A DNA stretch of 64,000 bases from sequence record PZ386967.1. The stretch is one strand, 5' to 3'. Each line of letters starts with the position of its first letter. Position 1 is the stretch's first letter. The notes under the pieces were generated by a model. That model did no database searches, was not told the origin of the DNA, and saw only the letters and a list, made by a program, of their open reading frames with translations. Positions 61,045 through 64,000 of this stretch are shown piece after piece. Position numbers and translations under genes: made by a program. Origin of the DNA: a phage.

Positions 61045-61689
61045 TTACTTCTTGAACAGACGAAGGAACTTCATCATGTTATCCATGAAAGTTGGCTTCT
61101 TGGCCTTTTGTTTTACTGGAGCACCCTGATCATTCAGAACACGACTGGCCGGAGGAGTTGGATTCAAAGATTTAATTGCCTGATTCAAATCGGAATTATC
61201 CACGACACCCACTTCTTCACCGACCGTAACGCATGGTTTGATTAGAACGGATTTCTTAGACTGCTCATACTGATGAGCGATATCCAGATATTTCTTGCGC
61301 TCTGCGTAGAAATCAACAGACTTGACCTTGCGACGACGCCAATTGGCGCTTTCTTCGCCATAGAAATCATATCCGTTTCTGATCAGCCAGTGTACGGCTT
61401 GTTCAAAAGAACCGAAGACCATAAGTGGAGCACCCTGGCCTTTCTCAGATTGTTCCAGGCTACCATAACCCATCAATACAACCTGGCCTTTGATACTCAA
61501 ATCAAACGTCATACCAAGGTTCGGGATGTTTTTATCGCGGCGGAAGAACCCGCCATCACGGTAGACGTAAACAGGCGACAGGAACTCATTCAGAGTACGC
61601 TTGACACCCTTGTATCGGAAGAGTCTGACAATTGGAGGGGTGTCACGGGAAATCACTTCGTTCAATTCCCAGATAGAAACATTACGCAT
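61045..61689 (-). CDS. hypothetical protein
   Basis: 214-aa ORF; last protein gene before the tRNA region. Confidence 0.4.
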   Translation of the reverse strand: MRNVSIWELNEVISRDTPPIVRLFRYKGVKRTLNEFLSPVYVYRDGGFFRRDKNIPNLGMTFDLSIKGQVVLMGYGSLEQSEKGQGAPLMVFGSFEQAVHWLIRNGYDFYGEESANWRRRKVKSVDFYAERKKYLDIAHQYEQSKKSVLIKPCVTVGEEVGVVDNSDLNQAIKSLNPTPPASRVLNDQGAPVKQKAKKPTFMDNMMKFLRLFKK

Positions 61690-61805
61690 CGGTGTATCCT
61701 CAAATCTATGACAGGGGGTTAACGGTTAAATTTTAAACCCCCTTTGTATCATTGAACAAACTATGATAAAGGAGGACATGCTTGGGTCGATAAGAAGATA
61801 ATAAG

Positions 61806-61842
61806 ACAGGGATAAAAAGAAAGCCGGATAGGATATCCGGCT
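61806..61842 (-). terminator. rho-independent terminator closing the minus-strand tRNA cluster
   Basis: AGCCGGATA-GGA-TATCCGGCT followed on minus strand by TTCTTTTTATCC. Confidence 0.55.
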
Positions 61843-62058
61843 ATACCACATCGATGGGTTGGGTTGAAAGACTACACGCTTACACTGGTACTACCCTATG
61901 GGAGAGCGCGTCAGGAGTCGAACCTGAAGTCGTCGACGTAGAGAAAGCTATTTGCATTTCACTATCCTCGCCGCGATTTTCTTAACTTCCTAAACACCCC
62001 GATTACGAGAGAGTCGACATGCACATCTTCTAACTCTTCAGGAAGTCACGCCCGTAAT

Positions 62059-62147
62059 TTGGCGGAAGGTGAAGGATTCGAACCTTCGGGGGCTAAAAGC
62101 CCCACTCGATTAGCAGTCGAGTCCCTTAAACCTCTCGGGCAACCTTC
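62059..62147 (-). tRNA. tRNA-Ser (anticodon GCU), class II with long variable arm
   Basis: Hand-folded: acceptor GGAAGGT/ACCTTCC, anticodon stem CTCGA/TCGAG with loop CTGCTAA, variable hairpin GGGGC-TTTTA-GCCCC, T-arm GAAGG-TTCGAAT-CCTTC, discriminator G, encoded CCA. Confidence 0.8.
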
Positions 62148-62368
62148 CAATTTGGACGGGCTTCACACCCGATTGAGCATTTGATCTGCTGTAGCCCAAC
62201 TCCCCGCGCTTCTCAGCGCCGATTGGTTAACTGGCGACCAGTGCCTTCTGGTTCGATCTCCTGGAACTTTACAGGCTTTGCGCCCGACCATTTCTGGAAG
62301 TTGGGGCATCGTTTCCGATGTGGAGTCACCCCATTTTATACACAGCTGGCTGCAACGCTTACTGTGTT

Positions 62369-62452
62369 TGGTGTGAGTGGATGGATTCGAACCACCGCGC
62401 TGTTACGGGGAGATTTACAGTCTCCTGCATTCGACCGCTCTGCCACACTCAC
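62369..62452 (-). tRNA. tRNA-Tyr (anticodon GUA)
   Basis: Acceptor GTGAGTG/CACTCAC, anticodon stem GGAGA/TCTCC loop CTGTAAA, long variable arm, T-loop TTCGAAT, discriminator A, CCA. Confidence 0.75.
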
Positions 62453-62709
62453 ATTTGGTCTGCCGCTGCGTGCTGGGCCACGCTCGAGGACATCGGCCAT
62501 CCTTCCTCAGCTAATCCACGCAGCGGTAGATTTGTATCAGAGTGTCCGGTGTAGCAACCCGTGAGGTGCGCACTACTGTAGCCTCTACACTCTGAATTTG
62601 GTGGGCGTTACTATCGTCGTCTTCGGATTCCGTTCGGCTATTGGACAGAGGCTTGGAGCTTGTCGGTCGCGTACTTTATGCCTATTCACTTTCGTTCACA
62701 CCCATTGTC

Positions 62710-62785
62710 TGGCGACGATGGCAGGACTTGAACCTGCGACATACGGTTTAACAGACCGCCGTTCTACCGACTGAACTACATCGTC
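62710..62785 (-). tRNA. tRNA-Asn (anticodon GUU)
   Basis: Acceptor GACGATG/CATCGTC, D-arm GTTC-AGTCGGTA-GAAC, anticodon loop CTGTTAA, T-arm GCAGG-TTCAAGT-CCTGC, discriminator G, CCA. Confidence 0.85.
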
Positions 62786-62794
62786 TTGCAAATC

Positions 62795-62819
62795 ACTATA
62801 CCATATAAAGTTTATTGAA
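62795..62819 (-). promoter_or_regulatory. TTCAAT-box / TATAGT promoter positioned to start transcription just upstream of tRNA-Asn
   Basis: Minus TTCAAT 62819-62814, 13-nt spacer, TATAGT 62800-62795, 9 nt before the mature tRNA 5' end. Confidence 0.45.
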
Positions 62820-62956
62820 CAAACATTTATTTTACAACAAACTGTATTGGCGGGGTCTGAGGCTTTTCACCTCACCTGCTGGGTTTGGCCGCCCAGCCGT
62901 TCTCTATGAGGATTCACTGTCCGGACAGCTATCCATTAAACTATCGCCCCTCAATA

Positions 62957-63033
62957 TGGTGATCCTGATTGGGTTTGAACCAATGACCAATGAATTATGA
63001 GTTCACTGCTCTAACCGACTGAGCTACAGGACC
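62957..63033 (-). tRNA. tRNA with CAU anticodon (elongator Met or Ile2-lysidine type)
   Basis: Acceptor GGTCCTG/CAGGATC (one G-U), D-arm GCTC-AGTCGGTTA-GAGC, anticodon loop CTCATAA, T-arm ATTGG-TTCAAAC-CCAAT, discriminator A, CCA; no initiator-specific features. Confidence 0.75.
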
Positions 63034-64000
63034 AAATTATTGTGTGACCAACCAAGGACTGTCAACCCTTTATCCCGTTTGTGCATGATCAGTTCATACA
63101 GGCCTCTTTGTGCTGCCTCACGGCATGCGCTTCTGTTGGTCATTGGCTTACACTGTGGCCTCACAACAGGCGTTTATTTTTCCAGGGCTTTCCACTTACA
63201 AGTCTTAACCAGACCGGGATACGGGCTTGTAAGATCGGGTTGGACACAACTTTGAGGACACTGACGACGTATACGAGTCACCCATAACAGATATTCGGAT
63301 GCCAGTGTCCTCAAAGTTGCAACCAATGTCGCAACTCGCAGCTTCCATACAGAAGCAACTTGTCCTCTAACGCTCGGACCAAACGAGGCTGGCTGGTTGA
63401 TTCAGAGCCGCTGGTTGCTCCAGCAAGCATGGGTTGATAGCCCGGCAACATAGAATCACCCAAAGATGAAGAACATTCATGACTCACATCACACCACGAA
63501 TGGCCTGAAAGAGAATCGAACTCTTTAAATGCTCTTCATTTTGTGAACTTGAGAATACTACGCCTGTCTCGGGTTTCCCCTTAGTTCGGCCTCCCAGTCC
63601 TCGCCGCGCCGGGTAGCTAACCCTGATGGCTCGTCTGCTACTGAGTTCTTCTTGGTGCCCACCAGTGTCCGGAATGTGTAGACATCGCAATCTGCAAGGC
63701 ATGGTCTATTTCACCCAATGCTCTCTCAAGTTCACAAATCGAAGTGCCCTGACTCAACAGTATGGCCCAATATGCTGTTATCGTCCACCGGATTGGCCGC
63801 CCAATTTGTAGATCAACCTTTGGGTTTAAGATAAATTGTCAAGGCACTTCGATTTGTGTGCCCTTCACCTGCCAGGGATCAGGGCTGATGGCAAGACTTC
63901 GCTCACATCTTTCAAGATACTCGTGAGAATATCCTCAAAGATGTGGAGCCGTTTTAGGGAGTCGAACCCAAATGCTCGGCCAGCGCTGACCTTACATCCC

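Follow-up and report, generated by a model that had tools for sequence, protein, structure and literature searches.

Independent structured small-RNA genes probably alternate with the tRNAs of a Vi1-like phage operon

In bacteriophage T4, rnaC (species 1) and rnaD (species 2) are annotated as stable RNAs and lie at the distal end of the tRNA cluster, of which rnaC is the last RNA gene; both are absent from Rfam. To our knowledge, the non-tRNA RNAs in phage tRNA arrays have received no attention since species 1 and 2 were sequenced in the 1970s. Phage tRNA arrays counter tRNA-cleaving defences, and are now being reread as counter-defence against tRNA-cleaving immunity (PMC11464382, PMC13096335). 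Two further kinds of RNA are associated with phage tRNAs: GOLLD and ROOL, which occupy phage tRNA islands, sometimes with embedded tRNAs (PMC12286853), and theta ribozymes, which are hepatitis delta virus (HDV)-like RNAs at the 3' ends of phage tRNAs (PMC10879173). Here we analyze a tRNA operon on the minus strand (63065-61812) of PZ386967.1, a 64,000-nt stretch of phage DNA (hereafter the window), and the RNA modules in the spacers between its four tRNAs; we found no description of these spacer RNAs in the literature.

The spacers hold several RNA structures, encoded on the tRNA strand, that are under purifying selection; one promoter-terminator unit spans them, and they are exchanged as cassettes among phages. 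Our preferred reading, with a probability of about 0.7, is that this is the tRNA operon of a virulent Vi1-like phage, in which four tRNAs are combined with independent structured small-RNA genes carried as cassettes; the best-supported of these modules are S4a, S3b, S2b, and S2c. The initial annotation of this DNA had described four canonical tRNAs interspersed with structured non-tRNA RNA segments, the spacers being more than simple linkers. ARAGORN and Rfam each returned exactly four tRNAs, all on the minus strand, and the spacers are conserved like tRNAs, with helices kept by compensatory changes, in support of that description. The region resembles Ackermannviridae (Vi1-like) phages, with its best match to Enterobacter phage fGh-Ecl02 (95% over the 2.3 kb queried). 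Alignment breakpoints cluster, dividing the spacers into the modules S1, S2a, S2b, S2c, S3a-d, S4a, and S4b, which are given here in the order of the minus strand, together with the tRNAs and the predicted transcription signals:

63036-63065, minus strand: predicted promoter P1, sigma-70-like (TTGACA-18-AATAAT), from a consensus scan (11/12 matches)
62957-63033, minus strand: tRNA with anticodon CAT, called Met by ARAGORN, 70.6 bits with Rfam
62848-62950, minus strand: S1, a 103-nt module with three hairpins (conservation; compatible fold)
62795-62819, minus strand: predicted promoter P2, phage-type (TTCAAT-N13-TATAGT), read from the sequence
62710-62785, minus strand: tRNA-Asn (GTT), by ARAGORN and Rfam
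62599-62703, minus strand: S2a, a 105-nt module, 73-99% identical across relatives
62537-62595, minus strand: S2b, a 59-nt three-way junction (compensatory fold)
62456-62529, minus strand: S2c, a 13-bp closing stem around a 44-nt core (compensatory fold)
62369-62452, minus strand: tRNA-Tyr (GTA), by ARAGORN and Rfam
62340-62367, minus strand: S3a, a 7-bp hairpin directly after tRNA-Tyr (alifold, 19 sequences; pairs hardly vary)
62255-62332, minus strand: S3b, a 78-nt pseudoknot (compensatory fold)
62153-62254, minus strand: S3c and S3d, the rest of the Tyr-Ser spacer, with several hairpins (conservation)
62060-62148, minus strand: tRNA-Ser (GCT), by ARAGORN and Rfam
61899-62053, minus strand: S4a, a 155-nt tRNA-like RNA (compensatory fold and covariance model)
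61843-61898, minus strand: S4b, a conserved trailer linking S4a to the terminator (80-98% identity where relatives have it)
61812-61842, minus strand: predicted intrinsic terminator, a 9-bp GC-rich stem and U run (scan)

The locus was compared with 60 related loci from GenBank phages, IMG/VR, and metagenomes. Across the Ackermannviridae, nucleotide identity is 81-100% for the modules and 78-100% for the tRNAs; for the adjacent gene encoding a 214-aa protein it is 71-77% (55-74% at the amino-acid level). The spacer modules were found in 187-333 phage records each, and for the 220-nt S3 spacer as a whole, identity is 89-100% across 255 records (at least 90% in 245 of them). Each phage has one copy of a module, always within the tRNA array, and phages differ in which cassettes they have, tRNAs included, and in the order of these. 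In relatives L007, L009, L010, and L016, for example, tRNA-Tyr is precisely absent and S2c is fused directly to S3, with the junction of the loss between two ACCAAA repeats (...GACCAAAU immediately before the tRNA and ...CACCAAAC at its end). At the sensitivity of blastn, S1 and S4a did not appear outside Ackermannviridae. Modules also occur in T5-like, N4-like, and rV5-like phages, where they lie in tRNA clusters and always on the tRNA strand: S2b in T5-like (directly after tRNA-Lys) and N4-like phages, S2c in N4-like phages and in metagenome contigs of ~70 kb, and S3b in the rV5-like Erwinia phage Hena1. The S2b and S2c cores had zero matches in 185,579 bacterial and archaeal species genomes (one genome per species); this absence, together with the single copy confined to the tRNA array, led us to reject spread as a miniature inverted-repeat transposable element or from a host. 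Among 5,426 Escherichia coli genomes, no match extended beyond a small part of the operon, and the top matches listed fall on tRNA-Met, which also speaks against such spread.

Comparison with related phages, a check that the initial annotation had proposed, yielded four folds backed by compensatory changes (S4a, S2c, S2b, and S3b), with pairing recomputed after shifting the helix partners serving as slid controls. In the tRNA sense, G-U cells outnumber A-C cells in these four folds (81 vs. 14), and the transcribed strand is therefore that of the tRNAs.

S4a is best read as a putative tRNA mimic, expanded and built like T4 species 1 RNA. A 7-bp acceptor stem leads into two long arms, of which the first is branched; an A-rich 8-nt linker joins the arms, and a linker of 2 nt separates the second one from the T arm. 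The latter is a canonical 5-bp arm with a UUCGACU loop (T-loop GGTTCGACTCC at 61914-61924), followed by UCCCA. Two long arms stand in place of the D and anticodon arms, and S4a is tRNA-like only in its acceptor stem and T arm. It exists as three diverged types that are 71-80% identical and have one common fold; among 12 distinct sequences of these types, 95.9% of cells are paired vs. 40-47% in slid controls. Of the six helices, five (the acceptor and T stems among them) contain the 11 compensatory pairs, and the seven pairs of the stem closing the first long arm are invariant. The S4a covariance model matched ordinary tRNAs end to end at 15-28 bits, which indicates that the topology of S4a is tRNA-like. 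T4 rnaC was matched at 18.8 bits (E=0.007), inside the range of ordinary tRNAs; because this score is no better than those of tRNAs, it does not establish homology between S4a and rnaC. ARAGORN detected no transfer-messenger RNA (tmRNA), and S4a is without the G3-U70 pair. For 61895-61990, the initial annotation had reported a T-loop-like sequence and no foldable cloverleaf: the T-loop is real, and the second statement falls, as a cloverleaf-like RNA runs from 62053 to 61899, beyond the stretch then examined. The motif GGTTCRANYCC occurs seven times in the window vs. 0.54 expected, six of the seven lying within 61914-63968 on the minus strand. No structured gene follows S4a before the terminator, and S4a is unannotated in the records examined. 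As a separate observation, the S4a covariance model found tRNA-sized genes in two T5-like contigs that ARAGORN missed (L058, 8738-8848, and L054, 1213-1310, both minus strand); they have good acceptor stems, canonical T arms, and NCCA, with non-canonical D and anticodon regions.

The 10-bp stem that the initial annotation had placed against tRNA-Tyr belongs to S2c, and an inverted-repeat search extends it to 13 bp, with 10 of the 13 pairs compensatory. It closes around an invariant 44-nt core (62516-62473) that holds a second stem, and is followed by A-CCA-AAU abutting tRNA-Tyr. For S2c as a whole, 98.4% is paired vs. 32-44% in slid controls, and there are 11 compensatory pairs; the copies in N4-like phages and metagenome contigs have a longer closing stem. 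A hammerhead, suggested by the motif CUGAGGA, was rejected by inspection only, the GAAA box being missing and Rfam giving no match. S2b consists of a 9-bp closing stem and two hairpins with (nearly) invariant loops (GGCUACAGUAG and GCUACACCG); 98.2% is paired vs. 24-49% in slid controls, with five compensatory pairs. In S3b, a GGGG/CCCC helix crosses a GACUCC/GGAG-UC helix, and three hairpins carry loops of GNRA type (GAAA, GAAA, and GCAAA); 97.1% is paired vs. 24-45% in slid controls, and both crossing helices covary among its seven compensatory pairs.

The remaining modules, S1, S2a, and S3c/d, are conserved, and their folds are less certain. S1 (89-100% identical in 187 phage records) has 97.9% of cells paired vs. 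at most 52% in slid controls, with only two compensatory pairs; its invariant closing stem is followed by G-CCA and can be drawn in two registers, GGGG/CCCC or GGCG/CGCC, which are inseparable here. S2a has a GGGUG/CGCCC closing stem, with one-sided changes only, followed by A-CCA-AAUU, and an internal variable hairpin that by inspection is compensatory between lineages; its full fold is uncertain. S3c/d contains one hairpin with a compensatory pair, and its long-range pairs are tentative; S3d ends in a stem with a 7-nt loop and U-CCA-AAUU, adjoining tRNA-Ser, and the last 41 nt of S3 persist in phages without the rest of it.

A promoter and a terminator bracket the unit. P1, which on its sequence would be a strong sigma-70-like promoter, ends 2 nt ahead of the first base of the first tRNA (CAT). 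P2 is probably a second, phage-type promoter, 9 nt upstream of tRNA-Asn within an AT-rich insert present only in the closest relatives; it is close to the motif TTCAAT[N14]TATAAT reported for Vi1-like promoters (PMC7283392). The terminator stem-loop occupies 61842-61822, with compensatory changes in its stem in relative L026, and the U run reaches 61812. The sequence GTTTGTTCAAT, which overlaps the TTCAAT-type phage promoter motif, occurs exactly twice in the 64 kb, both times on the minus strand: just upstream of tRNA-Asn (62814-62824) and of the gene for the 214-aa protein (61751-61761). With one mismatch allowed there are four matches vs. 1.7 expected, a count that alone is not significant.

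All four tRNAs and most modules end in the same way, with a closing stem followed by N-CCA (the exceptions are S4a, with U-CCCA, and S2b, with UACA), and every unit is set apart by an A/U-rich linker of 3-10 nt (in order: UAUUGA, GACAAU, AAUU, AUACAAAUCU, AAU, AAC, AAUU, and AAUUAC). Given these ends and linkers, release by tRNA-maturation enzymes is expected, and we infer from the sequence that the modules are small stable RNAs matured in this way. Transcription would start at P1, probably also at the internal P2, and stop at the terminator (61842-61812). Host tRNA-maturation enzymes would then release the modules as stable RNAs of 60-155 nt along with the tRNAs, with RNase E cutting the A/U linkers, RNase P cutting at the foot of each closing stem, and either 3' exonucleases or the CCA-adding enzyme finishing the ends. 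The ACCAAA junctions could serve as microhomologies for in-register cassette exchange, tRNAs included, which would explain why entire cassettes are gained and lost in register.

The leading alternative is that the spacers serve tRNA maturation purely in cis. They would belong to the tRNA precursor as insulators of folding, as sites where nucleases enter or stop, or as leader or trailer hairpins, would see to it that the tRNAs mature correctly and in the right proportions, and would be degraded afterwards. Their position directly against the tRNA ends and the A/U-rich linkers suit this explanation, as do the constant place of S3d before tRNA-Ser, the usual place of S2a after tRNA-Asn, the plain hairpin S3a right behind tRNA-Tyr, and the precedent of theta ribozymes as phage RNA devices beside tRNAs for maturation (PMC10879173). 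However, modules occur without their usual tRNA neighbor (S2c fused to S3; S1 before or after tRNA-Met), and insulators would need nothing near the elaboration and sequence constraint seen in the invariant 44-nt core, the pseudoknot, and the 155-nt four-way junction. T4 rnaC and rnaD, of the same design, are moreover annotated as stable RNAs. We therefore regard a purely cis-acting role as unlikely, although some pieces, such as S3a and S3d, may act in cis during processing.

As to what stable RNAs of this kind would do, their role is probably not decoding. We speculate that the modules imitate tRNAs or serve as decoys, binding host or phage factors that work on tRNAs; tRNA-targeting defence nucleases and enzymes of tRNA processing or modification would be examples. 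One target of Septu is tRNA-Tyr (PMC11464382, PMC13096335), which this operon encodes. A broader and doubtful possibility is that the ORF-poor locus of ~3 kb, of which the operon is the distal third, is an "RNA island", a stock of cassettes for tRNA mimics and other structured RNAs that passes between unrelated virulent phages of enterobacteria (Ackermannviridae, T5-like, N4-like, and rV5-like), whose RNAs would act as counter-defence decoys or inhibitors of tRNA-targeting nucleases, with Septu, retron-PtuAB, PARIS, and PrrC/RloC as candidates. If so, it would by analogy provide a function for the T4 species 1 and 2 RNAs, which have lacked an explanation for fifty years.

A self-cleaving ribozyme in S3b (or another module), cutting the polycistronic transcript beside the tRNAs, is very improbable. 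The strand order of S3b (P1-P2-hairpin-P1'-hairpins-P2') has crossing helices as in HDV-like and theta ribozymes, and in Hena1 S3b starts 7 nt after the CCA of tRNA-Tyr, in keeping with the location of phage theta ribozymes (PMC10879173). The defining features are nevertheless lacking. In the window S3b starts 37 nt past tRNA-Tyr, whereas a theta site is expected within about 5 nt; helix 1 has just 4-5 bp; and the P3 position is taken by a 4-bp hairpin with a GAAA loop, which makes the usual P1.1 pairing impossible. Theta ribozymes are recognized by a catalytic cytosine at the first position of J4/2 (PMC10879173), yet in S3b a U or G follows the last hairpin (GUAAAGUUCCA) in 14/14 sequences. 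The ribozyme families of Rfam, HDV-type included, gave no match even at E≤10.

Equally disfavoured is neutral decay, in which the spacers would be decaying tRNA genes or junk, their conserved look produced by horizontal spread, for instance by homing-endonuclease conversion as with T4 SegB, which mobilises T-even tRNA regions (PMC13096335). The relatives do show signs of turnover: tRNA content varies (Trp, Gln, Arg, Ile-GAT, and Ser-TGA are present in some and missing from others), module order is mosaic, some have HNH endonuclease genes in the region, and the Det7 cluster includes an annotated pseudo-tRNA. Substitutions in the spacers are, however, non-random, with 96-98% pairing and many double changes vs. 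24-49% in slid controls and with G-U preferred over A-C as given above; loops and cores are invariant across phage families that otherwise share nothing; and S4a keeps its fold unchanged through three diverged types. Because the spacers are conserved like tRNAs and their helices are kept by compensatory substitutions, we reject neutral decay, and with it the degenerate tRNAs that the initial annotation had offered as one option. Its proposed search for overlooked ordinary tRNAs likewise came out empty: neither ARAGORN nor Rfam (RF00005, even at E≤10) placed a canonical tRNA in the spacers.

Small proteins are also disfavoured: the minus strand of 62150-62368 and 62520-62709, called ORF-free in the initial annotation, is only approximately so (ORFs of 48, 38, and 34 aa are present on this strand in the spacers), but coding was rejected since the reading frames are unconserved among homologues, the 48-aa frame (62309-62163) being frameshifted or stopped in most of them and the ORFs in other modules being at most 37 aa and differing between homologues.

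Several points weigh against independent small-RNA genes. Folding energy is unexceptional, with z-scores of -0.2 to -2.1 for the four spacers; thermodynamic z-scores were uninformative as evidence for structure, and conservation and covariation therefore carry the case. Covariation is scarce or lacking in S1, S2a, and most of S3, as these sequences hardly vary, and the very high identity could stem in part from recent horizontal exchange and not from selection. The 3' end of S4a is UCCCA instead of NCCA, S2c is without CCA in N4-like phages and metagenome contigs, and the tail of S2b is variable; recombination of cassettes may have produced the CCA ends as a side effect. The decoy role is pure inference, and by Pfam the genes adjoining the operon include none for RNA binding or RNA processing; those neighbors with assigned functions (a family-B DNA polymerase, a 5-hmdU DNA kinase, and a pyridoxal phosphate enzyme) have only DNA-metabolism functions.

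None of the spacer modules matched Rfam 15, and a permissive scan (E≤10) of 61600-64000 gave no extra tRNA and no other credible family: ribozymes, GOLLD/ROOL, Y RNA, signal recognition particle RNA, and tmRNA all stayed within noise.

In the relatives, the tRNA cluster ends an ORF-poor stretch of ~3 kb between a small conserved gene and the gene for the 214-aa protein. The first tRNA (anticodon CAT, 62957-63033) has its best E. coli matches (83%) to genes annotated as tRNA-Ile, as it is in the fGh-Ecl02 record, and its sequence suggests that it may be a lysidine-dependent tRNA-Ile2 reading AUA. A segment upstream of P1 (63136-63153) is complementary at 15/18 positions to 62973-62990, in the variable-loop/T-arm region of this tRNA, which may be chance.

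The ORF-poor DNA upstream of the operon, from 63034 to 64000 and beyond the end of the window, is also structured, RNA-like sequence. It contains long helices with multiple compensatory changes (13 relatives), which could be RNase III sites:

63240-63263/63303-63326: helix, 23/24 bp
63531-63554/63724-63747: helix sharing an arm with the next one
63733-63753/63838-63858: helix, 21 bp
63904-63922/63927-63945: helix, 19 bp

A second T-loop, GGTTCGACTCC as in S4a, lies at 63958-63968 (minus strand) and is followed by ...AACGGCUCCA; on this evidence 63940-64000 is the putative 3' half of another large tRNA-like RNA, ended by the window edge. A complete element is present in relative L002, with an acceptor stem GCCGUU/AACGGC followed by ACCA. 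In Klebsiella Taipeivirus phages, the sRNA STnc100 (RF02076, 54 bits; L004, 5967-6181, and L005, 4694-4908) is part of the homologous ORF-poor array, where it lies upstream of the first tRNA; it is absent from the window. The GenBank records of several relatives (L002, L004, and others) have "hypothetical protein" coding sequences over modules on either strand, one of them a 65-aa "RNA ligase" laid over a conserved RNA module; these calls are probably spurious.

The locus thus adds at least four covariation-supported folds missing from Rfam. Three of them (S2b, S2c, and S3b) recur in tRNA clusters of other phage families, and S4a provides a clear architectural counterpart of T4 species 1. About 200 genome records are flagged in which modules are unannotated or lie under spurious "hypothetical protein" calls, and an old question becomes testable in tractable pairs (CBA120, Det7, T5-like, and N4-like phages).

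Among known systems, S3b resembles the theta and HDV-like ribozymes in being a small pseudoknot with the same order of crossing helices (P1/P2), and differs in having no catalytic C, a short P1, another P3/L3 geometry, and a larger distance to the tRNA; theta ribozymes have been described from gut phages, many with recoded genetic codes. GOLLD and ROOL are likewise structured phage or prophage RNAs of unknown function, often by tRNA islands and sometimes with embedded tRNAs, but they are single RNAs of 580-800+ nt with Rfam models (RF01998 and RF03087), whereas the units here are of 60-155 nt and independently shuffled; neither family had a gathering-level match in the window, and none was listed in 61600-64000 at E≤10. 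Det7 gene 194 (a pseudo-tRNA; compare the "tRNA-OTHER" calls in Ackermannviridae records) is a non-canonical tRNA-like gene in the same cluster, but it is a different cassette, located between tRNA-Ser and S4a and absent from the window. The analogy to T4 species 1 and 2 RNAs drawn in the initial annotation is apt, and most so for S4a, which has the architecture and operon position of rnaC. The fold of T4 rnaC runs from an acceptor-like stem through a long arm and a second arm, joined by an A-rich 8-nt linker, to a canonical T arm that is preceded by a 2-nt linker, and rnaC and S4a both lie on the tRNA strand of a tRNA operon as the distal gene before the terminator; the acceptor stem is a perfect 7 bp in S4a, whereas by inspection that of rnaC has two U-U mismatches. 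T4 rnaD ends in ...GGCGCACCA-AAUUA, and S2a and S3 share with it a closing stem followed by a CCA-AAUU junction (ACCA-AAUU in rnaD). Unlike in T4, there are more modules per operon here, with several unrelated folds, some of them common to four phage groups.

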